Below are positions 8,398 through 23,257 of a DNA stretch of 35,321 bases, piece by piece. The stretch is taken from the IMG/VR virus record IMGVR_UViG_648276647_000008. One strand, written 5' to 3'. This stretch comes from a virus (lineage: Duplodnaviria; Heunggongvirae; Uroviricota; Caudoviricetes). The position numbers were made by a program, and so were the translations under genes. Numbering within the stretch: position 1 is the first letter of the stretch; every line of letters begins with the position of its first letter. Below the pieces are notes generated by a model. The model made no database searches. It was not told where the DNA came from and saw nothing but the letters and a program-made list of their open reading frames with translations.

Positions 8398-9279
8398 TCA
8401 GCGTCCTGAATCGGTATACCCCCATACAAAACCAGGTTGGACACTAAGGTCTGATAGCTTTTCAATCCCCACCTGTGGAATGAAGTCGGTAGCCCGAAAG
8501 GGCACCCACAGACGGGTATATGCACCCTCTGTGGACTCCTTTTTATCCTGATTTGGGCATTTATGCGGCGGGAGACGAAGACGCATTTCACCTTTATCGA
8601 TGTAGCACGGTAAACCATGTTCGAGCTTTTCATGAGCCAGTCGGATGTGTGCCGCCAGCTTCATAAATTCAGTATCAATGGCCATCCGTTTAATCGTTTC
8701 ATAACGACGCTCAGCCTGATCTTCACGAGTACCGCTAACATCGTTATAAAGCTCACACTGATAAGCGAATTCCCAAAAACGCAAATCAACGATCGCTTCT
8801 TTGAATTCCGCGTCGTCTTCAGGTGGCAATGCTGCACGGCGCATCTCCAGCATTTCCATTGCCCAACCATCAAGCGGCACGATACGCCATTGATAAGGTA
8901 CACCCTCTACAGACACCTCAATATCGTCAATGAAAGGTTCCACTTCCAGGACCTGGATATCTTCAGCCAGAGCATTCATATCGCAATCGTAATAATGCTC
9001 TTTACCGCAATGTTTACAGGTGTAGGTGAATGTCTCGACCGGTGTTTCACGGGAGCCGGTAAATATCCACCATAACGCGGTAATCCGGTCCTGCGCCGTC
9101 CATGTCAGGGGATCATGTTTCGCGGGTTCAGCCAGCAAGGCTTTTAAATACGCCGTTGTCTGTTGTTCTTGTTCCTCCGGTGTTATCGAGTTGAAACGCA
9201 TCGCATCAGCAATATTTGGCTGACGGAACTGGATCAATTCAGTTGGCCGCGATGGTAGCGGGAAAAGAGGTAAAAGCAT
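8398..9279 (-). CDS. Putative morphogenetic protein (P1 pmgB-like, by position)
   Basis: 293-aa ORF with a good RBS (AAGGAG 5 nt before ATG at 9279); contains a CxxC...C cluster (CKHCGKEHYYDCD); function unknown. Confidence 0.4.
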   Translation of the reverse strand: MLLPLFPLPSRPTELIQFRQPNIADAMRFNSITPEEQEQQTTAYLKALLAEPAKHDPLTWTAQDRITALWWIFTGSRETPVETFTYTCKHCGKEHYYDCDMNALAEDIQVLEVEPFIDDIEVSVEGVPYQWRIVPLDGWAMEMLEMRRAALPPEDDAEFKEAIVDLRFWEFAYQCELYNDVSGTREDQAERRYETIKRMAIDTEFMKLAAHIRLAHEKLEHGLPCYIDKGEMRLRLPPHKCPNQDKKESTEGAYTRLWVPFRATDFIPQVGIEKLSDLSVQPGFVWGYTDSGR

Positions 9280-9915: not shown

Positions 9916-10523
<608 letters not shown>

Positions 10524-10636
10524 TTGTCATTTGTTACCGGTCAGTCTACACATTTCAGATACTATGTTAAAACAACTCAAGTGCTTCAAGTAGCACATCG
10601 TCATCAACACCCAGCCCCAAGATACGGTGATAAAAT

Positions 10637-11671
10637 TCAAGCCTTAAGAGGCTTTGTGTATGTTCGTGTAATCCATCCAGTAATAAACTCGTCCCCTGAT
10701 TTAACCTGCACGAAAAGCCATTGGCGATCTTTTTTATCTAAAACAGCCACTATAGTATTTTTGCCAATGCATTCAATCACCTCACTATTTATAGAAGGAC
10801 TGACGTGTAATCTTACGTTCTCACCAGTTATAAAACGAAAACCATTGAGATCTTCCCAACTAATTTCTTTGTTTTCTTTAATTAATTGTTGTTTTGATAT
10901 TGGTTTATCCTCAAACAGAGATATAAAATATGATTCTGCCTTGTGTATTCCCAGCAAGGTTTTCTCTTTTCCGTAATCAATAAAAGCACCAAACACAACT
11001 TGAGAAAATATAACCATTAGTAACCATTGCAGTGGATAAGGAAGCTCTTTAAATGAATCAACAAACTTTGAGCTAGGTTTATTTAATCCTTTATTTTGAA
11101 CATTACTTTTGGTGTGTGATGTTTCAGTAGCACCTTCAGCATAAGCCTGCGCAATAGATGAAATCCCCTGCTCTATTATTTGATGTAATGAAGCATTTCT
11201 TGTTCTAGCATAGTGATCTAGTACTTTCTTTATGTCTTGGCTTACATCTATTTTATAACTTGCACTTTGTTGTAATTCTTTAAGTATCGCTTGCATGTTA
11301 TTTAAACCAGCTTGCTTATTAAGCACCTCAAGCTGTTTTCGTAATGGCATAGCTATTTCGGCCTGTTTCCTTAGAATTTGAATATATCTATTTGCGTCAT
11401 GAGGGAAAAGAGCCTGAGTCTGTTTCTGTAAAATCGCGATATGTTCACGATACTTGCTGCCTATTCCAGCCAAGTTCGGTATACTAGCCAATTGTTTTCG
11501 AAGAGAGTTACTAATTACAGCTTGTCTATTCAATCTTGTCATATTTTGAAAAGAATGTTTTTCTATTCCTAATTGTTTTTGCAAGATCGCTACGTGATCT
11601 TTGTATGATGGAATGAGCACTGACTGTTTATACAGTAACTTCAACTCATTAGAATTAGTAATTTTTGTCAT
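10637..11671 (-). CDS. Membrane-anchored protein with N-terminal ~45-aa repeats and C-terminal SH3b-like domain
   Basis: ORF track gives 355 aa from a TTG; the first ATG (MTKIT...) is at 11671. Repeats (HVAILQKQ... / HIAILQKQ... / YIQILRKQ...), one hydrophobic helix (LQWLLMVIFSQVVFGAFIDY), C-terminal segment resembling bacterial SH3. Markedly AT-rich relative to flanking phage genes. Confidence 0.5.
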   Translation of the reverse strand: MTKITNSNELKLLYKQSVLIPSYKDHVAILQKQLGIEKHSFQNMTRLNRQAVISNSLRKQLASIPNLAGIGSKYREHIAILQKQTQALFPHDANRYIQILRKQAEIAMPLRKQLEVLNKQAGLNNMQAILKELQQSASYKIDVSQDIKKVLDHYARTRNASLHQIIEQGISSIAQAYAEGATETSHTKSNVQNKGLNKPSSKFVDSFKELPYPLQWLLMVIFSQVVFGAFIDYGKEKTLLGIHKAESYFISLFEDKPISKQQLIKENKEISWEDLNGFRFITGENVRLHVSPSINSEVIECIGKNTIVAVLDKKDRQWLFVQVKSGDEFITGWITRTYTKPLKA

Positions 11672-11745
11672 ATTATTCCATTTATATAATAGAATATTAC
11701 GCAACCAATGTTTTATTGATTGCGTTAATCTTTAACACAGAAAGA

Positions 11746-12222
11746 TCATTTGCCTCGTTTAATACATCCATCCATTTTGGCTTGTTGATACAACTTACTT
11801 AGCCCAGAAAGAGGGAATGTAGCAATTTTTTCATTATCAACATAAGCATCAATCATATTAGCATTTGAATCTGCTGCATCTTGCCAAAAGGCATACCACC
11901 AAGAATCTCCAACCATTGATCCAAGATTGCTAAAAGGATATTGCTCACCATCTATAGTTAATACTATTTTATTCTTGTCAGCATTATACTCTTTTTTATT
12001 ATTCGACGAACTTAGCAACAAGCCTAAACTACCTGCACTATCTGGTGAACCATACATGAATCCCATATCACATAAAAAACTTATCTTATCACCATTATGA
12101 TTATGGATTGTATATTCTCTCCCCCCTCTCTCTTCAATTACATTCCATTGTAGAGGATCAATTTTTGCAAATGTTCCTGCTGAAACTAACGATACAAATA
12201 ATAAAAACCATCTCATATTCAT
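11746..12222 (-). CDS. Secreted/periplasmic protein with N-terminal signal peptide
   Basis: 158-aa ORF; N-terminus MNMRWFLLFVSLVSAGTFA is a typical Sec signal peptide; AT-rich; no recognisable catalytic motif. Confidence 0.5.
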   Translation of the reverse strand: MNMRWFLLFVSLVSAGTFAKIDPLQWNVIEERGGREYTIHNHNGDKISFLCDMGFMYGSPDSAGSLGLLLSSSNNKKEYNADKNKIVLTIDGEQYPFSNLGSMVGDSWWYAFWQDAADSNANMIDAYVDNEKIATFPLSGLSKLYQQAKMDGCIKRGK

Positions 12223-12244
12223 TCTTTTCGCTTCTTATCTGTAA

Positions 12245-12595
12245 TTATTCTGCAATATCATTTGCCCATTGCACGGCAGCAAAATGAGTACCCAAACCAC
12301 TCAGGAAAGCAATTACCCCCAAAACAATACTTGCTGCTGTTGATTCAAACAAAGTACCAATACTATAGCCAATAGCTCCCCATACTAAGCTAAATACAAT
12401 CATCAATGGTATTGCCAGAAATTTTATTCTTAAACTAAAAATCAGTCCAAGAAAAGAACCGCCAAAGGCCCACCATGATTTAGACATTAAACCTATCAGT
12501 ATTGACAGAATTCCTATTTCAATAAAGAGAATATTAGATTGCTCTTCATTGAATTTCGCATTTGTTACACCTTTACGAACATGTTCAGATGACAT
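12245..12595 (-). CDS. Small polytopic inner-membrane protein
   Basis: 116-aa ORF with 3-4 predicted TM helices; ATG at 12595 preceded by AGGAGA RBS. A TTGACC-17-TATGCT promoter-like element lies upstream on the minus strand at ~12640-12670. Confidence 0.5.
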   Translation of the reverse strand: MSSEHVRKGVTNAKFNEEQSNILFIEIGILSILIGLMSKSWWAFGGSFLGLIFSLRIKFLAIPLMIVFSLVWGAIGYSIGTLFESTAASIVLGVIAFLSGLGTHFAAVQWANDIAE

Positions 12596-12678
12596 GATTA
12601 ACTATCTCCTGCCACAGATAAAACGTCTTAAAATAACATTTTGTAGCATAAAGTTTCACCATGCAATGGTCAAAATCT

Positions 12679-12707
12679 TTGACCCATATCAATTAAACTC
12701 ATACATT
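12679..12707 (+). promoter_or_regulatory. Sigma70-like promoter (TTGACC-17 nt-TACATT) directed towards the immI operon
   Basis: Hexamers and 17-nt spacer read from the sequence; positioned like the P1 c4/icd/ant promoter upstream of the operator motif and candidate c4 RNA. Confidence 0.45.
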
Positions 12708-12741
12708 TTAGTTACCAGAGAAATAATTTACATGGTTGCAA

Positions 12742-12758
12742 ATTGCTCTAATTATTTT
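12742..12758 (+). promoter_or_regulatory. C1-repressor-operator-like 17-mer (ATTGCTCTAATTATTTT)
   Basis: 15/17 match to the asymmetric P1 C1 operator consensus ATTGCTCTAATAAATTT as recalled; three more copies occur in the window. Confidence 0.5.
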
Positions 12759-12831
12759 ATTTTTTTAGCTTCATATGCTACATTAACTTGCTTGCGTGCT
12801 AATGCATTTTCGGTTTATCCTAAACAGGCAT

Positions 12832-12908
12832 CTTAGTAAAACGGATGCCGGGATTGGAACCCCGGATAATGCAAAAGGCGACATAGACGCCAAAAGCGTC
12901 TTTTTTTT
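12832..12908 (+). ncRNA. c4: Candidate c4-like antisense RNA (immI repressor RNA)
   Basis: Non-coding segment between promoter/operator and icd. Hairpin GCCGGG-ATTGGAA-CCCGG presents ATTGGAACC in its loop; a second hairpin GACGC-CAAAA-GCGTC is followed by T8 (intrinsic terminator). Complement GGTTCCAAC occurs ~13010 and a second ATTGGAACC copy at ~13045. Boundaries approximate. Confidence 0.4.
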
Positions 12909-13093
12909 GTGTCATGCCATCGCACAACCATACGTAGCACATAGCTCCGAGATCAATGGTAGTGCTGGCTGGGCTGCCGAAAGGCAGGCCGGTTCCCTTT
13001 TGCGCCGGTAGTTCCAACCCAGTCAGTGCTACCGCCATTGAGATTGGAACCTCACGCGGTAGCTCCTTAAATTAGCAAAAGGAGGCTGCCATT

Positions 13094-13315
13094 GTGGCTA
13101 CTATCCCTACCCCTACTCATCCTGAATTTATCTGGCGCTTTTACTCCTGCCAAAAACACCACTATCACTTCGTTATCGCAGCAACAGAAGACGAAGCACG
13201 CTCTCAATTGCCTGATGGCCCCTGCATTTTTACAGCCCGTTTTTCAACTAACTCGCGCAATTCACTTAGTTACTGGAGCCTCCCCTTCTCTGCCGACGTT
13301 CAGGGGGGTTTATGA
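13094..13315 (+). CDS. icd: Small protein overlapping the ant start (Icd-like cell-division inhibitor)
   Basis: 73-aa ORF with GTG start at 13094 and AAGGAGG RBS ~10 nt upstream; its stop overlaps the ant ATG. Size and position match P1 icd as recalled. Confidence 0.55.
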   Translation: MATIPTPTHPEFIWRFYSCQKHHYHFVIAATEDEARSQLPDGPCIFTARFSTNSRNSLSYWSLPFSADVQGGL

Positions 13316-14715
13316 AAACACCTCTCGTCACCCGTAATGAAATAGCCGAAGCGATCGCCCTGCATACTGCCTGTATGCCGACACGGGAGATCCCCGGCGC
13401 AATTGCCAACTATTTCATGATAACCAGACGTTTTTATACCCGAACAGATAAGGCTGTGATCAACAGGCTACTGATAGCCGAGATCAGGGATTATTTGATT
13501 GAACAAGGACGTCTACGTTACGCAACAGTGGCAGCAGAAATGAGAAAGGAGGCACACAGAGTGACCGGTAATAATTTGAATGTTGAAAAAACAGCACCTG
13601 TTACGTCAGCTACGCCAGCACCAGCCGTGAATATCATCCCCAACACCGGAGACACAATCGACAGCCTGACACTGTTAAAGATGGTCAATGAAGCGCGTAA
13701 GTTATGTGGGGAACCAGAGGTTCGGAACAACAAATTCATCGAAAAAATACTCGATGAGCTTGATGGTGAGCACTACACAAAAAGTGTAGTGGAAAAAATG
13801 AACAAAACATCAATGCTTGTCATAACCATGACATACAAACAAGCCCTGCGCGTTGCTGCTCGCGAATCGAAAGCGGTCCGCCGTTCGCTACATACCATGA
13901 TTCAGGCATTGGAACCTATAAATGTTGAAAATCATCCTGATGAAATTCCCGTTCTGGAATGGCAGGGAGTACGCGTCGTGACAACCGAGACTCTTGCTAG
14001 AGGGTATGGCACTACACCTATTCGTATTCAGCAGAACTACAATCGCAATGAAGAACGATTTGTAGAGGGTAAACACTTCTTTAAAATCAAAGGAGATGAG
14101 ATAAAAAGTTTGCGACTATCTTTTAGCGAGTTGCAAATTTCCCCCAAGACCAGATCCTTAATACTCTGGACCGAACGCGGAGCGGCACGCATGTCTAAGA
14201 TCGTAGACACAGAGCAAGCGTGGGCATTCTTTGAAAAACTGGAAGACAGCTACTTCCGGCAAAAAGAACAGCAACCGGTCGCAATCCCCCAGACGCTTCC
14301 CGAAGCTCTGCGCCTGGCTGCCGAGCTGGCTGAACAAAAGCAGCTACTGGAACAGAAAACCCACCAGCTAAATCAGCAGCTGGTGGCCGCAGCCCCTAAA
14401 GTCGATTTTGCCGACCGGGTATCAGTGGCTAATGGAATCCTGATCGGGAACTTTGCAAAGGTCGTTGGACTTAAGCAAAACGCCCTTTTCTCATGGTTGC
14501 GCCAGAACGGCATTCTCATGGCTTTTGGTGCGCGCAAAAACGTACCGCGCCAACAGTACATCAACGCCGGGTATTTCACGGTGAAAGAAGTGGTGCTGGA
14601 TGATGAAAATGGCTACCAGATACGGCTGACGCCCCAATTAACGGGTAAAGGCCAGCAGTGGTTAACTCGCAAGCTACTTGATGCTGGTTTGTTAAAACCA
14701 GTAGCAATAGGTTAA
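13312..14715 (+). CDS. ant: Antirepressor (Ant; AntA-like N-terminal region plus KilAC/ANT C-terminal domain)
   Basis: 467-aa ORF; C-terminal ~140 aa are ~65% identical to the C-terminus of the downstream KilA-like protein (read from the translations). Internal in-frame Met residues could give a shorter Ant2-type product. Confidence 0.75.
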   Translation: MKTPLVTRNEIAEAIALHTACMPTREIPGAIANYFMITRRFYTRTDKAVINRLLIAEIRDYLIEQGRLRYATVAAEMRKEAHRVTGNNLNVEKTAPVTSATPAPAVNIIPNTGDTIDSLTLLKMVNEARKLCGEPEVRNNKFIEKILDELDGEHYTKSVVEKMNKTSMLVITMTYKQALRVAARESKAVRRSLHTMIQALEPINVENHPDEIPVLEWQGVRVVTTETLARGYGTTPIRIQQNYNRNEERFVEGKHFFKIKGDEIKSLRLSFSELQISPKTRSLILWTERGAARMSKIVDTEQAWAFFEKLEDSYFRQKEQQPVAIPQTLPEALRLAAELAEQKQLLEQKTHQLNQQLVAAAPKVDFADRVSVANGILIGNFAKVVGLKQNALFSWLRQNGILMAFGARKNVPRQQYINAGYFTVKEVVLDDENGYQIRLTPQLTGKGQQWLTRKLLDAGLLKPVAIG

Positions 14716-14728
14716 CAAAAGAAAAAAA

Positions 14729-14754
14729 CCTGCCAGCAAACTGGCAGGTTTCTG
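14729..14754 (+). terminator. Intrinsic terminator-like hairpin after ant
   Basis: CCTGCCAG-CAAA-CTGGCAGG stem-loop followed by TTTCTG; the U-tract is short, so this may be a partial terminator. Confidence 0.45.
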
Positions 14755-14773
14755 AGCAGATCGACCAACCCGA

Positions 14774-14790
14774 TCTGGATCGAGTCAGAA
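14774..14790 (+). promoter_or_regulatory. C1-operator-like 17-mer (TTTGCTCTAATAAATTT) upstream of kilA
   Basis: 16/17 match to the recalled C1 operator consensus, ~90 nt upstream of the kilA start, consistent with a C1-controlled kilA-repL promoter. Confidence 0.55.
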
Positions 14791-14879
14791 AAATTTGCTC
14801 TAATAAATTTCGTTTTCTAAGTGCAAAGAATCACCATTTCGAGCTGGTGATTGAAGGTTGATGCAAATTTGGAGAAAAA

Positions 14880-15680
14880 ATGCAACAAACATTCAATGCG
14901 GATATGAATATATCAAACCTTCATCAAAATGTCGATCCTTCAACCACTCTGCCTGTTATTTGTGGTGTTGAAATTACGACCGACCGCGCTGGCCGTTACA
15001 ACCTTAATGCTCTACACAGAGCGAGCGGACTCGGTGCCCATAAAGCGCCAGCTCAATGGCTAAGAACGCTGTCAGCAAAACAGCTCATCGAAGAGCTTGA
15101 AAAAGAAACTATGCAGAATTGCATAGTTTCGTTCGAAGGCCGTGGCGGCGGCACTTTTGCCCATGAATTGCTCGCTGTGGAGTACGCAGGCTGGATTTCT
15201 CCCGCGTTTCGGCTGAAGGTAAACCAGACATTTATCGACTATCGAACCGGAAGATTACAACCTGCTATTCCGCAAAGTCTCCCTGAAGCTCTCCGTTTGG
15301 CTGCCGACCTGGCAGAGCAAAAGCAACGGCTGGAGCAAAAAATGCTGATGGATGCACCTAAAGTCGAATTCGCCGAACGCGTTGCTACCGCCAGCGGGGT
15401 TCTAATCGGCAACTATGCCAAAGTGCTCGGCCTGGGCCAAAACTATCTCTTCACCTGGTTGCGTGATAACGGAATTCTGATCGCAACCGGTGAACGCAGG
15501 AACGTCCCCAAACAAGAATACATATCCCGTGGGTATTTCACCCTTAAAGAAACCGTGATCGATACAAGCAATGGAAGCAGGATTTCTTTCACGACTCGTA
15601 TAACCGGCAAAGGTCAGCAGTGGCTGATGAAGCGATTGCTTGATGCTGGTGTGCTGGTACCTGTCGCGGCAACGCGCTAA
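14880..15680 (+). CDS. kilA: KilA (KilA-N DNA-binding domain plus KilAC domain)
   Basis: 266-aa ORF, ATG with GGAGAAAAA RBS; N-terminal KilA-N-like segment and C-terminus paralogous to Ant; length matches P1 KilA as recalled. Confidence 0.7.
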   Translation: MQQTFNADMNISNLHQNVDPSTTLPVICGVEITTDRAGRYNLNALHRASGLGAHKAPAQWLRTLSAKQLIEELEKETMQNCIVSFEGRGGGTFAHELLAVEYAGWISPAFRLKVNQTFIDYRTGRLQPAIPQSLPEALRLAADLAEQKQRLEQKMLMDAPKVEFAERVATASGVLIGNYAKVLGLGQNYLFTWLRDNGILIATGERRNVPKQEYISRGYFTLKETVIDTSNGSRISFTTRITGKGQQWLMKRLLDAGVLVPVAATR

Positions 15681-15709
15681 CAGACGTAGTAAGAACCACC
15701 AGCATTGTA

Positions 15710-16554
15710 ATGCTGGCTAAAGTCACTTTCCTGAGCTGTATAACGATGAGCGATTTTACTTTTTCTGGCTATGAATTGGCCTGCTTTGTAACACACTCCG
15801 GTCTATCCCGTAGCGCCGGGCATATCCTGTCGCAATGTGCAAATCTCGCGGCAACAACCAGTGAATACTTCATTCACAAGCCTCACCGCCTGATCGCGGC
15901 AGAAACCGGTTATAGCCAATCAACCGTCGTTCGTGCATTCCGTGAAGCTGTAAACAAAGGAATCCTGTCTGTAGAGATTGTTATCGGCGATCACCGTGAA
16001 CGTCGCGCTAACCTGTACCGGTTTACACCATCCTTTTTGGCCTTCGCACAACAAGCCAAAAATGCGCTGATTGAAAGCAAATTAAAGATCTCTTCAGCGG
16101 CAACCAAGGTTAAAGCTGTTCTCGCTAAGACATTGGCTTTATTTAATTTTTTATCCACACCCCCATGTCAAAATGATGCCCCCTCCCCCTGTCAGGATGA
16201 CGTGGCAATAAAGAATAAGAAGTCACAAATAAAAAAACAAAAAGATCAGTTTCCGGCGGTGCCGAAACGACCAGCCTCAAAAAACTGACTTCATGGATCG
16301 CCGAGGCAAAAGCAAAGGCTGACAATCTGCGGTTATCCAAAAAACGCGCTCAAAAACATGAGTTCAAGCAGAAAGTAGAGGCGGCAGCGCGGAAATATGC
16401 TTACCTGAAGAACAAGCGTTCTCCTGATATTGGCGGGATATCAAACTTCGATAATCTGCCGCATTGCATGACGGTAAACGAAGCTCTTAATGCGGTTTTA
16501 GCCAAAAATAAAGATAACGAACAATGGGGTATACCGGCAGGATTCAGAGGGTGA
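15710..16554 (+). pseudogene. repL: Lytic-replicon initiator RepL-like gene interrupted by an apparent -1 frameshift in an A-rich tract
   Basis: Frame 1 (15710-16288, 192 aa) has an HTH-like segment GYSQSTVVRAFREAVNKGIL. The overlapping frame is open from 16219 to the stop at 16552-16554 with no ATG until late. Joining them through AAATAAAAAAACAAAAAG (16228-16245) gives ~281 codons, the length recalled for P1 RepL. Confidence 0.45.
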
Positions 16555-16601
16555 TAGATTGCTCTAATCTGGAGTCACCTGGCATTTTCAGTTTGAGGTC
16601 G

Positions 16602-16850
16602 GAGATGCAATCTGATTTTTTACAGTTAGCGATCGCTTTTGCAGGATATGTTTGTATTGGCTTCTGTGTATACATGATCAGCCGAAAAATGCTTGTCGAT
16701 ATCGACCGCAAAGAACAAGCAGAGGAGATCTTAGAATGGATTTTCTTTGGCGCGGTCTGGCCATTAGGGATCATGTTTGCTGCAACGTTTCTTCTGATGT
16801 GGATATTCACCCTTCCAGGTGATTTATATAGAAAAAAAGCCAGACATTGA
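16602..16850 (+). CDS. Small two-TM membrane protein
   Basis: ORF track starts at 16524, but that overlaps the repL C-terminal frame; ATG at 16602 (MQSDFLQLAIAF...) has a GAGG RBS. Two hydrophobic helices. Function unknown. Confidence 0.35.
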   Translation, partial: EMQSDFLQLAIAFAGYVCIGFCVYMISRKMLVDIDRKEQAEEILEWIFFGAVWPLGIMFAATFLLMWIFTLPGDLYRKKARH

Positions 16851-17032
16851 TACAATCGCTGCGGGTGCTTGAGGCTATCTGCTTCAGGCATTACCCGACA
16901 AGCAGACAGAAGAAAGCCCCAGATAACATTACGCGTCCTGCAAGACGCTTAACATTAATCTGAGGCCATATCTATGCTTAGCATACGTAGATTAGCCCTC
17001 TCCCCTTTTTAGGAGCAAGGAATTTTTTACTG

Positions 17033-17629
17033 CTATGCCGCCTTTCCAATTATGGATTCAGCGACCAGAACAACCCCATGCTTACTTCGATCTGGGTGTT
17101 CACTCCATATCTCGGATTCAGGAATACTTACCCCGTCATAGCAAACACGTTCGCCGTCAAACGGGTAATACTGAGCGGCATCGGTGTCGAGGATAAACAC
17201 TTTTAGCTCGGAAGAGCGACGGGCGATGTGTTGCCAAAGAGCTTTTCCACCTTCGTATTGCTCATTATCACTGAGCAAAACAACACCAGCTTTTGAGGCT
17301 ACGGTTTCGTAAACAAAAGTAGCTAAACCGACATCCCGGACGGTTCCATCAACCACGATACCTTCAATCTGGGCAACATCGCTATCCTCCCAGAACTTCC
17401 TTACCAGTACGCCTTCAAGCTGCGGGCGACGTTGAAGTTCAAGAGTAGCGACAACCTTATGGCGCATATCACCATCGATAACAGAAGGCGCAGCCTCTAT
17501 TACAGCTGCAAATGGGGTTTTGGAATCCCATATAACCTGGTAAAGCACACCCTGGATGGTAACTCCGTCCAGGATCGAAAATCGACGAGCGACAGTACCC
17601 GGGGAGTACGACATTGGAATCACAGCCAT
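17033..17629 (-). CDS. Hypothetical protein
   Basis: ORF track gives 210 aa; ATG at 17629 (MAVIPMSY...) has an AAGGGGGA RBS. An operator-like variant (revcomp of GTAGTTTATTAGAACA, 17683-17698) lies upstream on the minus strand. Confidence 0.4.
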   Translation of the reverse strand: MAVIPMSYSPGTVARRFSILDGVTIQGVLYQVIWDSKTPFAAVIEAAPSVIDGDMRHKVVATLELQRRPQLEGVLVRKFWEDSDVAQIEGIVVDGTVRDVGLATFVYETVASKAGVVLLSDNEQYEGGKALWQHIARRSSELKVFILDTDAAQYYPFDGERVCYDGVSIPESEIWSEHPDRSKHGVVLVAESIIGKAA

Positions 17630-17754
17630 TTTAGAGTCCCCCTTTAACAGTACAGGCACAAACATCTACCTCAATAATTGTAGTTTATTAGAACATTAAT
17701 AATCTAACATAAAACTCAAGACAATGTTATCGATGCATTCTTATATAAAATAGT

Positions 17755-17780
17755 TATAAAAAAAGCTCCCGAAGGAGCTT
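17755..17780 (-). terminator. Intrinsic terminator ending the minus-strand structural operon
   Basis: AGCTCC-CGAA-GGAGCT hairpin; on the minus strand it is followed by a run of 7 T (A-run at 17754-17762 on the plus strand), directly downstream of the 169-aa gene stop. Confidence 0.6.
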
Positions 17781-17800
17781 AAAAATACAAGGGATGACAC

Positions 17801-18310
17801 TTAATCCCACTCAATCCAGTTGTAGACGATACGAAGTGACGGGCGCACAGCGGCAGTCACATCTTCGGTACTAAAGTCGATTGCATCACTGTAGATTTTG
17901 CAGTCCAACATTTCAATTGTTGTAGCAGCTTTTGTCACGGCGTTAACCCCGGAAGATTTGGACTCAGGGGTCGCAGCCATCGTGATATCAACATAGTCCT
18001 TCGCCGCAATGCGATCTTTAATGAACTGAAGAATATCACCTTCGATAGTCTCCACGCACTGGACCTGGATTTCCCCGGAGTTACGGATTGGACCGTGCTG
18101 GTTGAACTTCACACCATTCGGACCATAGTCCTCCACATCCTCGCGGGTCATTTCAGGAATTTGCGACGTGCGAACCAGTACGCTGATATCTTCATGGCCT
18201 GCAAAAGTGAGCTGGAATTCAGAAGATACCAGTCGTTCGCCTTTGGCCGCGTTGGCAGTATAGCGGCCCTTAATAAATTTACGGTTTCCCTTAGTGTTAT
18301 TGTGCCCCAT
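17801..18310 (-). CDS. Putative tail/virion structural protein
   Basis: 169-aa ORF, last gene of the minus-strand capsid/sheath operon; no motif recognised. Confidence 0.35.
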   Translation of the reverse strand: MGHNNTKGNRKFIKGRYTANAAKGERLVSSEFQLTFAGHEDISVLVRTSQIPEMTREDVEDYGPNGVKFNQHGPIRNSGEIQVQCVETIEGDILQFIKDRIAAKDYVDITMAATPESKSSGVNAVTKAATTIEMLDCKIYSDAIDFSTEDVTAAVRPSLRIVYNWIEWD

Positions 18311-18321
18311 ATAAAATCCTT

Positions 18322-18903
18322 TTACTGGAACGCCCGAACAATATCGGAGCTGTTATATATCGAAGAACCGGTCAACTGGAGGTTGACGGTGTTTTTCAGG
18401 AAATATCCATTACTGTCCCTTGGCGCATCGAGATCAAAACTTAAGTCCTGGATAGCGACATCGGTGATGTTGATCCGGCGACCAATGTTTAGCGTCACAC
18501 GTTCCGGGATTCGACCACCAACATTGGCCGCTTTTAGTTCCGGGCTAATCATGGCTGTCAACGCGGCGATAGCGCCTGAAACTTCAATGAATGGATTGTT
18601 CAAAGCAATGAAAGTTACGGGCAGCGTGAACGTCGGCGGTGTCCCCCCTTCCCAAACCATTAAGCTATTCCAACGGGCAACCGACGTTGTTTCAGTACCT
18701 ACTTGCACAAAACCACCCAGAGCACCAGAAACAGACCCCATGGACATACCAGTAAACGGTGCTTCCCAATTCTGGGCCATGTTCATTGCCGCCCCCTGGC
18801 TGATATATCCGGTAACCTGGTACTGAGAGTTCGTTAAAGTAACTTTCAGATATGGCGATACACCGTCAGCCTGGCTGTAAACCCCATAAGCTATAGGAGC
18901 CAT
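18322..18903 (-). CDS. Putative virion structural protein
   Basis: 193-aa ORF, tightly packed in the same operon. Confidence 0.35.
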   Translation of the reverse strand: MAPIAYGVYSQADGVSPYLKVTLTNSQYQVTGYISQGAAMNMAQNWEAPFTGMSMGSVSGALGGFVQVGTETTSVARWNSLMVWEGGTPPTFTLPVTFIALNNPFIEVSGAIAALTAMISPELKAANVGGRIPERVTLNIGRRINITDVAIQDLSFDLDAPRDSNGYFLKNTVNLQLTGSSIYNSSDIVRAFQ

Positions 18904-18938
18904 TCAAGTTAAAGGCCGGAGTTCTCCGGCCTCCTCCT

Positions 18939-19754
18939 TTAGCCAAGGCGCTTACGGCGCAGTTTCATTGACTTTTTGCGGGCAAGTTTTGCCGCGCCGG
19001 TCTGGGCTTTTCGACGCGCTTTTTTCAGCGCCGATTTTTGAGCCGCAGTCAGACGTTTTTTACGCAGGCGTTTACGGATGAGTTTGATCTCACCGTTACG
19101 AACAACCTTCTTAAATGCTTCAGTCAGCATTTCATCAGAAGTGCCAGCAACAACAAACGCCGCTTCCAGTTCGTCACGGTCGTCGCTATCTAAACCAGCG
19201 ATAGAGGCACCAACATCAGCAGCTGCGTCGTCGTCTTCATCGTCAGCCAGTGCTTCGATCAGGTCATCATCTACACCGCATGCTGCGAGGAAGTCAGCAA
19301 CATTTGCCCATGCTTCGTTATAGGCATCGTCCTGTTCTTCTGTAACTTCGGAGTCGTCGTCATCAGAGATACCAGCGATAGCCTGAACGAAACCATCAAG
19401 GGAGTCGAAAGTCAGATCACCGCTATCAGCCCAGGCGAAAACGGCGTCGGCCGCATCACTCAACGCATTCTGCATAGCACTTCGATTTGCAGCTTCCAGA
19501 ATCATCTGGTGCGCCTGTTCGACGGTCCATTCTTTACCGTCTTTCCCTTCCAGGATTTGCTCAGGAGCCGTGGCAGATGGAACGTTATCGTTAGTCTGTG
19601 CCGCCGGTTCCGGATTATTATTAATAACCGGATCTGTTGTCGGTTCGGCGCTTGCTCGGGCAGACTCCATCAACTGCACAGGATCAGAGTTCAAAGCGAA
19701 ACGAGACAGTCCATTCCCCAAAAATGCCCCGGATTGAAAAAAGTTTTTGCTCAT
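18939..19754 (-). CDS. Bipartite protein: strongly acidic core with highly basic Lys/Arg-rich C-terminal tail
   Basis: 271-aa ORF; Asp/Glu-rich stretches (DDDSEVTEEQDD..., DDEDDDAAAD) and C-terminus KKRLTAAQKSALKKARRKAQTGAAKLARKKSMKLRRKRLG; immediately downstream of the sheath-like gene. Confidence 0.4.
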   Translation of the reverse strand: MSKNFFQSGAFLGNGLSRFALNSDPVQLMESARASAEPTTDPVINNNPEPAAQTNDNVPSATAPEQILEGKDGKEWTVEQAHQMILEAANRSAMQNALSDAADAVFAWADSGDLTFDSLDGFVQAIAGISDDDDSEVTEEQDDAYNEAWANVADFLAACGVDDDLIEALADDEDDDAAADVGASIAGLDSDDRDELEAAFVVAGTSDEMLTEAFKKVVRNGEIKLIRKRLRKKRLTAAQKSALKKARRKAQTGAAKLARKKSMKLRRKRLG

Positions 19755-19763
19755 TGTATTTCC

Positions 19764-21353
19764 TTACTTAATAAGCAGCGGTACGCCCTGGATACGACGG
19801 GCTACGCCAGTCGGGCAGCAGGCCCAGACTACTTCCCATTTATCGAATTCCGCCTGCGTAACTTTCAGCACATACGGTTCTGTACCGTCAGCATCAGGAT
19901 CACGAGGAGCCACCAGAGCGCCGGAGGCGACAAAGCGATCCAAAAGTTTGGTCATCCCTTTAGTCAGGCCAGACTCAGTAATGCCGTCCGGGTTATGCTT
20001 CATCTGTCGGGCTAACTGGACAAAGAAACGGCTGATTGCGTTCATCAGGGATGGGACGTGCTGGAAATGCAGATAGTTGTCCTGCGTGCAGCAAGTTAAA
20101 GCATCATCGATGATCATCTGGCCCGAAGTACCTACAGATACTTTATTGAGTCGGCCCTTGACCATAGCTTCTTCGTCCGGGGTGTCTTCAGGATACAGCG
20201 GCTGAAGTGATGCACGAGCTATGACGGCACGTTCTTCACCAGCCGGTGAGTAATGCCAACCGCCGACATCGGAGTTTTTCTTGACGCCACGAGCTTTCGC
20301 CGCATACGCCGCGCCAGACAGACCGAAGACCACGCGGGATTGGGTCCATTTGTCTTTGCAGGAGAACGGGAAATGATAGACAGCACAGCTTACATAATCG
20401 GTACCAAGTAAACCGGTATCTTCAACAGCAGAGATCGCTTCCGTGTACGTCAATGTCGGTTTGACATCAAAGAAGCCATCAATCAGGCGATCAGAACAGA
20501 TATTACCTAACGCAGTGATCGCCGCATTGTCATAGCACCCCAGGCCGAGAACAGCGGTGTACATGTACGGCGCATTGTTCAGCACTTTCACCGCACGCAG
20601 GTACGCAGCGGTTGAGATTTTCGACTGATCGCCGTTGGTACCGCCAGTGAACGCCAACGATTTTTTGTTTGTTACTTTCGCTGTCGAAATCAGCTCTTCA
20701 TTAACAACCGCGCGCAGATATTTAGAACGGGCTTCCAGAGCCGTAGGCAGATAACACAAGCGGCCCATGTCATCTTTCGCTTCTTCCGCCAAAGACACAG
20801 TGTGTGTCTCCAGGGTCGTTACCACGCCGAGCGAAGTCGTCTGGGTCAGTTTTAAGAGGAAGCGTTCATTACCCGCGCTGTCCGCTGTTGCCGTTTCGAT
20901 GGTTAACTCACGGGTAGGTGAAATACACGGATCACCATCATCAACGTAGATAGCAAAGGCTTCGCCACTATCAAGTTCAATTTCAGAACCGTATGGCAAC
21001 GCACTGTAAGCCGGTTCGCCTGATTCATCGAACATAATAATCGGGAACTTCGCATCATCCGGAACAGCGCGAACAACATAACCAGACGTTTGCTGAATAG
21101 CTTCGTATACATGGCGAATTGGTTCGAACTGTGAGCCGGAAGACGGCTTCAGCGGTTCGCCGAGAACATCTTCGTAATTGGACTCAGTAACCGCAAGAAC
21201 AGTAAACGGCTTGCCACGCGCAAATACGCCAATACCAGCCCACAAGCTGCTATTTAATGCAACACCGGTAGATAACGTCGCATCGGCATTGATCGGGCTA
21301 ACCGCGACGCCGGATGCATTACCTAATGACTGTTGAATTGAATATTGAGACAT
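19764..21353 (-). CDS. Tail sheath protein candidate (P1 gp22-like)
   Basis: 529-aa ORF with ATG and RBS; size and position in the operon fit a contractile-tail sheath. Assignment by synteny, not alignment. Confidence 0.5.
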   Translation of the reverse strand: MSQYSIQQSLGNASGVAVSPINADATLSTGVALNSSLWAGIGVFARGKPFTVLAVTESNYEDVLGEPLKPSSGSQFEPIRHVYEAIQQTSGYVVRAVPDDAKFPIIMFDESGEPAYSALPYGSEIELDSGEAFAIYVDDGDPCISPTRELTIETATADSAGNERFLLKLTQTTSLGVVTTLETHTVSLAEEAKDDMGRLCYLPTALEARSKYLRAVVNEELISTAKVTNKKSLAFTGGTNGDQSKISTAAYLRAVKVLNNAPYMYTAVLGLGCYDNAAITALGNICSDRLIDGFFDVKPTLTYTEAISAVEDTGLLGTDYVSCAVYHFPFSCKDKWTQSRVVFGLSGAAYAAKARGVKKNSDVGGWHYSPAGEERAVIARASLQPLYPEDTPDEEAMVKGRLNKVSVGTSGQMIIDDALTCCTQDNYLHFQHVPSLMNAISRFFVQLARQMKHNPDGITESGLTKGMTKLLDRFVASGALVAPRDPDADGTEPYVLKVTQAEFDKWEVVWACCPTGVARRIQGVPLLIK

Positions 21354-21413
21354 AACTTTCCCTGTTATGCGCCCCGCACGGGGGCGCTATGTTAAACGGA
21401 GAACTTCCCCTGA

Positions 21414-23120
21414 TTACTCAGAGTCACCGGCATCAATCGTGTCGCCGCTAATGAAGTTAAGCCCGCCTTTTTTGGCCATTGTCAGCGTTACACGAGTGAA
21501 GTAATCAGCGCCGTTGCGTGGGTGCATATCGTTGATAGCCGAACCCCACAGTGTGGTACGGTTGACCAGCGCCGGAGTGGTCGGATGCTGGAACGGGATA
21601 GCCGGGACAGCATCACCAGTCACGAAGCCTGCTTTACCCGGATTTTCATCACGGACGTAGCACAGCACATCCATCGAGCTGAACTGAATGTTCTCTGTCG
21701 TTAAGTTCTTACAAATACCAGCAGGTACTTCGTACACTTTCACGTTACCGAACAGGGTACCGATGTAGTGAACATACGGAGTCTGGATATAGTCTTCGGC
21801 TGGCTGGAAGAAATCCTTCGGCAACTGTTTGAAGAAAGATGCTGCATCAGCACCAGCAAACATCCCCATCGCACCAGAAGATTTAACGCGCTCAATAATG
21901 TCGCGATATACAGTCTGGAATTTGCCACGAATGATGGTTGCCCATACATCAAAGGACTGGTTAACCGGCAGAGCGATGTCAAAGGTGTCGGTCGCAAGAG
22001 TACGCCAGATCATGATGCGAAGACGCAGCATATCCTGTTCATGAGACAGGTATTCCTTCAGGGTGCGGAACTGTAGGGAACCCAGGTCCAGACCAAATTC
22101 ACGCTGTGCTTCATACGCCGCCTGTACCGTGTGCTCAGCCGCGATAACGAACTGACTTGGGAACAGGGTGTATTTCTTCATTTCGTGGTTGATCAGCGGG
22201 ATCAGCTCAGGAGCGGCTTCAATATTGATTTCCGTCTCAATTGCGATCTCAGTGCCTTTATCCGGCGCTTTGGAGAACGACAGGGCAATCTGACCAATGT
22301 TGTAGTTCAGAGAGCAGGTAACAGTGATTTGCTCACCAGCAGCATTAGTAAACGAGTGAAGTAGGCTGCCGGAACCGTTATCAACAACAGACTTAATACG
22401 GTTAACGTAGATGTTAGTGCGACCTTTTCGGATTGGTACATTCTGGCCTTCGAAGTCTTCCATCTTGAAGGTTGCGGTTTTGCTAGTGCCATCGGAGCTT
22501 GCCACCAGCACATAGCGGCGACGTAACTGGCTGTACACACCGACGGATTGCATGTCCAGAACATCACCAGCAGCATAAGAACCAAAAGAGGAACCTGCCA
22601 CGTTAAAGACTTCATAGATGTCGGACTGGTCACGCGTAACCGGAATGAAGGTACACGCATCAGCGGTAGCTGCCCCCAACTGAACAGGCAGGATCATCGC
22701 GAGGAATAAAGGCAGACGCATAACACCGTCAGAAACGCTCATCATCTCTGCTGCGACGGATTCCAGCATCGCTTTATTAGTGGCATCCATGCTATTGCGG
22801 GTGGACTCTATCAGGCAGTTTTCCAGCGTCTGGTGGCAGGAGGCCAGAATTTCCGGACGCGGCATAGATTTATGTGCTGCGGCGTAGTCAGCCAGTGCAC
22901 TTGCCCACGCTGTAGCGATTTGAGCGGTGGCATTATCAGAGATACCCGCAAAAACCGGGTCTTTACGTGCAGCTTCAAGGATAGATGCGGCACGCGCGGC
23001 ATCATCTTTAATGAATTGGTTATCAGTACCGAACTGCGCAGTGCTTGCCCAGCCAAGCACAGCTTTAGAGCGTTTTGCGATATCTGCAATACGATTCTGG
23101 TATTCGCGTAAGTTACTCAA
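21414..23120 (-). CDS. Major capsid protein candidate (P1 gp23-like)
   Basis: Long ORF with no Met in the first ~90 residues of the track translation, which starts at a TTG at 23141. A second TTG at 23120 is preceded by AGGAAG at 6-nt spacing and is the more likely start (~568 aa). Confidence 0.45.
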   Translation of the reverse strand: MSNLREYQNRIADIAKRSKAVLGWASTAQFGTDNQFIKDDAARAASILEAARKDPVFAGISDNATAQIATAWASALADYAAAHKSMPRPEILASCHQTLENCLIESTRNSMDATNKAMLESVAAEMMSVSDGVMRLPLFLAMILPVQLGAATADACTFIPVTRDQSDIYEVFNVAGSSFGSYAAGDVLDMQSVGVYSQLRRRYVLVASSDGTSKTATFKMEDFEGQNVPIRKGRTNIYVNRIKSVVDNGSGSLLHSFTNAAGEQITVTCSLNYNIGQIALSFSKAPDKGTEIAIETEINIEAAPELIPLINHEMKKYTLFPSQFVIAAEHTVQAAYEAQREFGLDLGSLQFRTLKEYLSHEQDMLRLRIMIWRTLATDTFDIALPVNQSFDVWATIIRGKFQTVYRDIIERVKSSGAMGMFAGADAASFFKQLPKDFFQPAEDYIQTPYVHYIGTLFGNVKVYEVPAGICKNLTTENIQFSSMDVLCYVRDENPGKAGFVTGDAVPAIPFQHPTTPALVNRTTLWGSAINDMHPRNGADYFTRVTLTMAKKGGLNFISGDTIDAGDSE

Positions 23121-23257
23121 TTTACTCTTCCTTAAACACAAGGCACTTGTGTGAATCCCTTTTCGGAAGAGATTTTATTGAAAGTCACTTGTTGACTTTC
23201 TCGTGACAAGCAAATTTTTTATTTTTTTCGGGAGGAGGGGAGGAAGGTAAAATCCAA

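Follow-up and report, generated by a model that had tools for sequence, protein, structure and literature searches.

Does gene 21 of bacteriophage P1 encode a component of the tail, as its annotation states, or a protein of the assembling head? A paradigm among phages, P1 is also the founding member of a very large phage-plasmid group. Its gene 21 has been annotated as "baseplate or tail tube" for 40 years, and the label has spread into many records as "tail tube protein." The classical gene 21 amber mutants, which are said to date from the work of Walker and Walker in 1983, are recorded in the annotation as "baseplate or tail tube" defective. We addressed this question using a viral DNA stretch of 35,321 nucleotides, referred to here as the window, which represents a P1-like phage-plasmid. 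The region from 17000 to 23200 was 98.5% identical to RCS47 and SJ46 and 98% identical to P1. The ORF at 18939..19754 starts with ATG and is the orthologue of P1 gene 21 (YP_006524.1); its product, gp21, was 96-99% identical to gp21 of the P1-group phages. The late operon is ordered 23 (capsid), 22 (sheath), 21, pmgG, and bplB, so that the gene directly follows the sheath gene in a capsid/sheath operon, as a sequence-only reading of this DNA had stated. The features of the locus are listed in Table 1.

Table 1. Features of gene 21 and of the surrounding late operon (positions in the window).
Feature	Position	Strand	Basis
Complete ORF, P1 gene 21 orthologue, 271 aa plus stop	18939..19754	-	ORF list, identity to P1-group gp21
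RBS TAAGGAA overlapping the stop codon of the sheath gene; translational coupling to gene 22	19760..19766	-	Sequence
Predicted N-terminal propeptide (residues 1-30) with QLME30|S at its end; modeled as low-confidence/disordered	19665..19754	-	AlphaFold2 model, motif
Variable linker rich in Pro/Ala (residues 31-87), containing the motif copies QILE69|G and MILE87|A	19494..19664	-	Alignment, motif
Residues 88-212, compact all-helical acidic domain, net -35; internal motif LIE167|A	19119..19493	-	Charge count, AlphaFold2 model, motif
MLTE212|A, putative site of protease cleavage within the flexible linker (pLDDT <50); adjoins the basic module	19116..19130	-	Alignment, model, motif, covariation
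Residues 213-271, conserved polybasic module, 59 aa, 6.8 kDa, net +25	18942..19118	-	Alignment, model
Gene 23, major capsid protein; opens the late operon that contains gene 21	21414..23141	-	Cleaved N-terminal segment with three motif copies
Capsid maturation site AMLE|S; E120|S121 in P1 numbering, E127|S128 from the TTG start used here	22758..22772	-	PMC9024508
Tail sheath gene 22, directly upstream of gene 21	19764..21353	-	Annotation, profile match
pmgG (tube-linking protein), directly downstream of gene 21; essential for tails	18322..18903	-	Literature
bplB, true major tail tube protein	17801..18310	-	Literature

The gp21 encoded in the window contains 33 Lys and Arg residues and 50 Asp and Glu residues, with a pI of 4.55. 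These charges were sharply segregated along the chain: residues 100-205 carry a net charge of -33 (1 basic, 34 acidic), and residues 222-271 carry +22 (23 basic, 1 acidic). Neither extreme was matched in 20,000 shuffles of the protein's own composition, confirming the acidic stretches followed by a basic tail that the sequence-only reading had described. The anatomy of the protein was defined from an alignment of 23 diverse homologues and an AlphaFold2 model (mean pLDDT 70.7), structure and disorder prediction being a check proposed in the same reading. Residues 1-75 form a variable, disordered N-terminal region with a Pro/Ala-rich spacer, of which residues 1-30 were poorly conserved outside the enterobacterial P1 relatives. 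The acidic domain (approximately residues 77-202) was predicted to be compact and all-helical, with a pLDDT of about 90, and was followed by a flexible linker (residues 208-223, pLDDT <50). The basic module (residues 213-271) was modeled as a beta-hairpin, KVVRNGEIKLI, and a basic helical hairpin.

The basic module was the most conserved part of gp21, with a mean column identity of 61% among the 23 homologues versus 40% for the whole protein, and its conserved columns included uncharged positions. Two copies of the module were present in tandem in the homologues P0188, P0209, and P0223. The conserved uncharged positions and the duplication indicate that the basic part is a discrete module rather than a low-complexity tail, and the tandem copies, together with the extensions added in P0209, imply that it is portable. 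The earlier estimate of a basic tail of ~40 aa was therefore correct as to the tail and too short as to its length, since the conserved module spans about 57-59 aa. The alternative that the charged regions are low-complexity linkers was contradicted by the confident fold of the acidic part and by the conservation of the basic part. The extensions of P0209 comprise a Cys-rich N-terminus and an unrelated C-terminal segment.

Database searches gave little indication of function. No Pfam or NCBIfam match was obtained with gp21, with the 23 alignment members, or with the basic module alone, and neither sequence nor profile searches retrieved a PDB relative. The sole reproducible PHROG was PHROG 1053, which is described as "unknown function"; weak PHROG matches to "tail protein" and "head scaffolding protein" were each confined to one of the 23 members and were dismissed as noise. 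No known scaffold family, tube protein, or assembly chaperone gave a fold match. Thus, a homologue or fold match among the canonical tail-tube proteins or assembly chaperones, which the sequence-only reading had named as counter-evidence to its view, was not found in Pfam, PHROGs, NCBIfam, or the PDB. When the basic module alone was used as a query for other architectures, just short fragments of the gp21 family were returned. The P7 annotation, with placeholder names for genes, was uninformative. A full HMMER scan yielded 606 family representatives at 50% clustering, almost all of 215-260 aa and with the same architecture. On the sequence evidence, gp21 is best described as a member of a previously unannotated family with a new architecture, consisting of an acidic domain, a putative cleavage site, and a conserved polybasic module.

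We then compared the gene order in 35 divergent loci. These were obtained with a scan led by a divergent sequence; a P1-type lead gave near-identical P1 relatives alone. The order was invariant: capsid, a short gap or small ORF, sheath, gp21, PmgG, BplB, PmgC, Tub, PmgB, and Sit. All lineages examined had gene 21 between the sheath gene and the tube-type genes; in the ancestral order it precedes sit by five genes and is outside the interval between tube and tape measure. No frameshift extension of gene 21 was found: both alternative 3' frames closed rapidly, and pmgG starts 35 nt downstream. The position by itself suggests a role in the tail. However, gene order alone does not discriminate between head and tail functions: the same operon begins with the capsid gene and supplies the most abundant virion proteins.

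Several other features of the locus were observed during this comparison. In the divergent relatives, an ORF of 70-216 aa lies between the capsid and sheath genes (L002 7924-8235, L004 7823-8371, L005 7952-8377, and equivalents in L087-L106). At the N-terminus, its product has a small conserved domain ("..v.NNS.g.."), and the remainder is a low-complexity tail that is acidic, Pro/Ala-rich, or basic; the product may function in decoration or be some other head protein. This ORF is missing from the window (gap 21354-21413) and from the P1 clade, where about 60 bp separate the two genes. In the divergent lineages, pmgC, tub, pmgB, and sit directly follow bplB, whereas in the window and P1 about 7.3 kb (10482-17801) containing ant, kilA, and repL-like genes separate bplB from pmgC. 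Given the contiguity in the divergent lineages, this arrangement apparently arose when an immunity/lytic-replication block inserted into a late tail operon that was originally contiguous. Within this block, 15710-17760 of the window matches RCS47 and SJ46 and not P1; its RepL-like ORF has 192 aa versus 281 aa in P1, and rlfA, rlfB, and pmgF are replaced by a 108-aa membrane-like ORF (16524-16850) and a 210-aa ORF (17033-17665; PHROG 7522, weak GNAT-like match, E = 0.06). The RefSeq names "PmgG-," "PmgB-," and "PmgC-like head morphogenesis" (18322-18903, 8398-9279, and 9916-10482) conflict with the published roles of PmgG as tube-linking protein, PmgB as candidate tape-measure chaperone, and PmgC as head-tail adaptor. 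The PmgC mass of 31.9 kDa in the 2022 proteome table fits a 293-aa ORF better than the 188-aa ORF annotated as pmgC.

The published P1 virion data were compared with the tail labels. Several P1-like GenBank and RefSeq records list gp21 as "tail tube protein" or "baseplate," and the gene 21 record itself reads "baseplate or tail tube." By cryo-EM, the P1 tube has been assigned to BplB, the tube initiator to Tub, the tube-linker to PmgG, and the tape measure to Sit (PMC10304247, PMC12810830); the baseplate proteins were all assigned to other gene products, and gp21 is not among the modeled proteins. In the LC-MS/MS table of the P1 virion, the neighbors at gene positions 54, 55, 57, and 58 are present and position 56 (gp21) is missing (PMC9024508). 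As an intact protein, gp21 is thus absent from both the mature-virion proteome and the cryo-EM model. The predicted all-helical fold, without a beta-sandwich of the tube type, likewise disagrees with a tube protein. The absence of homology, the cryo-EM assignments, and the virion proteome leave the "tail tube" and "baseplate" labels unsupported, and the earlier doubt that gp21 is a tube protein was well founded. We therefore rejected gp21 as a structural tail tube or baseplate protein, a reading that the database labels favor and that we find scarcely credible. In a dCas12a CRISPRi screen, gene 21 was scored as essential; the authors warn that such calls are polar, and this result is confounded by polarity onto the downstream pmgG and bplB. 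Because pmgG is essential for tails and directly downstream, it is a target of polar effects of gene 21 mutations, and polarity on pmgG and bplB, both essential, could explain the tail defect of the gene 21 amber mutants.

A different relationship was indicated by sequence motifs. The P1 capsid maturation cut was mapped by Edman sequencing to AMLE|SVAAEM (PMC9024508). We searched for motifs of the same kind, defined as two hydrophobic residues and Glu followed by a small residue. gp21 contains five copies (QLME30|S, QILE69|G, MILE87|A, LIE167|A, and MLTE212|A) versus 0.37 expected, and none of 5,000 composition-matched shuffles reached five. Among 31 window and P1 proteins, the motif was enriched in gp21 and the Pro protease alone. 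Pro, which belongs to the T4 gp21 protease/assemblin fold class, has seven copies versus 0.90 expected. The three copies in the capsid protein all lie inside the removed N-terminal segment. No copy was present in BplB, PmgG, Tub, or PmgB, and there was one each in Sit (1,140 aa) and DarB (2,255 aa).

In gp21, the sites bracket the acidic domain: MILE87|A marks its N-terminal boundary and is conserved family-wide, and MLTE212|A is located four residues before the basic module, a placement held in 127 of the approximately 143 recognized modules of the family. E212 was nearly invariant in the alignment of 23 homologues, and one to three N-terminal motif copies were present in nearly all homologues. 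In DarA, the predicted site DLLE68|A coincides with the start of the cryo-EM density; residues 1-69 are absent from the density and have been presumed to be removed by Pro. The motif gave additional predicted sites in further P1 proteins. These were a second DarA cut at LMTE42|S (P1 darA, L166 19905-21824), possible C-terminal trimming of the portal at QILE559|S, 10 aa from the end (prt, L166 9313-11022), and possible C-terminal trimming of DarB at WIIE2239|T, 16 aa from the end (darB, L166 2470-9237). The extra copies in the capsid N-terminal segment (window 22758-23141) are SILE56|A and CLIE112|S in TTG-start numbering. An upstream capsid site (PMFE|S, PMFD|S, or PLYA|S) is conserved and covaries in other lineages; P1 has PVFA|G at this position and appears to have lost the site.

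We next asked whether the capsid and gp21 sites change together. The position of the capsid site was conserved across lineages, and the residue before the cut was E in 20, D in 9, and A in 2. The gp21 site preceding the basic module had E in 20/20 E-type lineages and D in 8/9 D-type lineages; the two non-acidic lineages had A or S there. In L096, the capsid site and both gp21 sites share the tetrapeptide LMLA. The switch at the capsid site was paralleled at the N-terminal gp21 sites and at a second site in the capsid N-terminal domain. Other conserved Glu columns of gp21 and the capsid protein remained Glu in all lineages, which excludes a general drift from E to D. In a comparison of the sister lineages L105 and L113, Asp had replaced 4 of 5 motif Glu residues and 2 of 43 other Glu residues (Fisher p = 0.0004). 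On the capsid+sheath tree, the coupled changes represent at least three independent events, a small number drawn from related sequences that are not independent; the one uncoupled case, L104, has D at the capsid site and E in gp21. No Pro or DarA homologue was found within the divergent loci examined, and a Vibrio fluvialis Pro (P0382), which comes from a different assembly than L005, retained Glu at the motif sites within its own sequence. The most economical explanation is a single protease that reads both the capsid and gp21 sites and whose specificity drifted between lineages, as has been documented for homologous giant-phage proteases (PMC5694885). A cleavage rule for P1-type proteases would then read hydrophobic-hydrophobic-E/D|small.

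These results suggest, with moderate confidence, that gp21 is not a tail component but a prohead-internal core or scaffold-type protein processed by Pro. The sequence-only reading had listed a scaffold or internal protein among several options, and the motif enrichment and the covariation lend this option new support. gp21 would be made in quantity from the capsid late operon and would enter the assembling prohead, where its conserved polybasic C-terminal module is probably the anchor, attached either to the capsid shell or to a different core component, and the acidic helical domain would fill the interior. Activated Pro would then cut gp21 after Glu30, Glu69, Glu87, possibly Glu167, and Glu212, at sites of the same kind as those in the capsid protein (AMLE|S) and DarA (DLLE68|A). 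With the cut at Glu212, the basic module would be freed from the acidic domain. Before or during DNA packaging, the acidic fragments 88-167 (-20) and 168-212 (-15) may be cleared, and cleavage would also release small N-terminal peptides and the 59-aa, 6.8-kDa, +25 peptide, which could be lost, shell-bound, or DNA-bound. Within this core-protein model, what becomes of the conserved polybasic peptide and what it binds are the points of greatest interest. Trypsin would leave LTAAQK and AQTGAAK as the longest products of the processed basic module, and computed digestion of processed gp21 left only NFFQSGAFLGNGLSR (in the propeptide) and AQTGAAK (646 Da) as fully tryptic peptides of usable size. 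With so few usable peptides, the gap in the tryptic virion proteome does not show that gp21 fragments are absent from heads.

Several observations do not fit easily with a head-core role. The classical amber label describes a tail defect, which conflicts with an essential scaffold unless polarity or a mis-assigned allele is involved. The 2022 proteome paper and the 2026 whole-virion structure identified no separate scaffolding protein in P1; both proposed the cleaved N-terminal 120 residues of the capsid protein, with DarA, as the scaffold. gp21 is a candidate for the separate scaffold or core protein that P1 is said to lack, and an existing proposal for the capsid's own domain counts against it. 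In addition, the acidic domain is predicted to be compact, in contrast to the elongated coiled coil of classical scaffolds. The constant location between the sheath and tube-type genes and the uncoupled lineage L104 also weigh against the core-protein model.

The protease sites would serve equally well for a protein with a different destination. In this alternative, gp21 is the precursor of a head-internal cargo: Pro frees the 59-aa polybasic peptide, which stays on the packaged DNA in a protamine-like manner and may be injected, and the acidic domain acts as a built-in chaperone that masks or neutralizes the basic module until cleavage. We regard this as possible, if unlikely. A net charge of +25 in 59 aa and a cut exactly 4 residues before the module across the family are consistent with it, and precedents are known in the basic internal proteins of T4 and in adenovirus pVII and mu. 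The processed module would escape tryptic LC-MS/MS and be disordered in cryo-EM; nevertheless, a small basic peptide in P1 virions has not been reported in the P1 virion literature examined, and a column identity of 61% that includes non-charged positions argues for a specific protein partner over non-specific DNA binding.

Two further readings place gp21 outside the head. As a non-virion tail assembly chaperone, its acidic domain would bind tape measure or tube subunits and its basic tail would enter the tube lumen, after which the protein would depart from the completed tail. The invariant gene position in the 35 loci, the classical label, the negatively charged lumen of the P1 tube (PMC10304247), and the combination of acidity and absence from virions, as in lambda gpG or P2 gpE, are all in accord with this role. 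We nonetheless judge it rather improbable, because it leaves the protease-type motifs, their enrichment, and the covariation with the capsid site unexplained, and the true tail proteins show no gp21-like motif enrichment. Moreover, gene 21 is not beside the tape measure gene, has no frameshift extension, and shows no similarity to a chaperone family, and PmgB already occupies the chaperone position upstream of sit. Charge segregation of this type also occurs in DNA mimics and nucleic-acid chaperones, so that gp21 might be a cytoplasmic DNA mimic or a nucleic-acid-binding regulator or chaperone, with the motifs being coincidental. This is very unlikely in view of the shuffling result, the fixed placement of the motifs at domain boundaries, and the covariation with unchanged control columns; the gene is also part of a structural late operon whose synteny is conserved.

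Should gp21 prove to be a core protein processed by Pro, a widespread annotation would be corrected, and P1 head assembly would be more T4-like than supposed, with a T4-type protease, a separate acidic core protein, and a capsid N-terminal domain. gp21 would also be a new candidate for involvement in the unusual head-size polymorphism of P1. If the peptide instead remains on the DNA as cargo, it would be a P1 component missed by tryptic proteomics and cryo-EM, and the >600 family representatives would constitute a widespread system of DNA-condensing-peptide precursors in P1-like phages and phage-plasmids.

The proposed role can be compared with several known assembly systems. The lambda gpG/gpGT and P2 gpE/E+E' chaperones resemble gp21 in being acidic, non-virion, and encoded within the tail gene cluster; gp21 differs in lacking tape measure adjacency, a frameshift product, and homology to them, and in carrying head-protease motifs. 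In adenovirus, the polybasic DNA-condensing peptides pVII and pX (mu) are freed from precursors by the virion protease, although this is another virus lineage with another protease class, and retention of the gp21 peptide on DNA is speculative. P22 gp8 has an acidic helical body and a basic C-terminal helix-loop-helix that binds coat electrostatically. In contrast to the predicted fate of gp21, it is recycled rather than proteolysed, its basic domain is far less charged, and no homology was detected. In HSV-1, an assemblin-fold protease cuts the scaffold pre-VP22a/UL26.5 at the M-site near the C-terminus, uncoupling the capsid-binding tail. P1 Pro shares the assemblin fold, and the corresponding gp21 site lies just before the C-terminal module; however, the HSV-1 tail is about 25 aa long, is not polybasic, and is cut at Ala|Ser.

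Further parallels come from T4. The internal proteins IPI-III and Alt lose a capsid-targeting N-terminal propeptide at an x-X-E site, to which the predicted site QLME30|S of gp21 may correspond, and are basic and retained in the head; in gp21, the basic part is the C-terminal fragment. Alt undergoes C-terminal trimming as well, at an LTE site (PMC5694885) resembling MLTE212 of P1 gp21. In its proposed function, P1 gp21 is most closely matched by T4 gp22, which acts with gp67 and gp68 as the major scaffolding core protein of the prohead. T4 gp22 is cut at multiple positions after Glu by the T4 gp21-type prohead protease that also trims the capsid (PMC9958956, PMC5694885). Both proteins are about 270 aa long, strongly acidic, helical, and absent from the mature virion. 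No sequence or fold similarity between them was detected, the cleavage in P1 is predicted, and gene 21 lies among tail genes, whereas the gp22 gene lies beside the portal and protease genes. To our knowledge, T4 gp22 carries no polybasic C-terminal module of this kind; P1 gp21 is distinguished from it by a compact acidic domain joined to a discrete, conserved polybasic module at the C-terminus.
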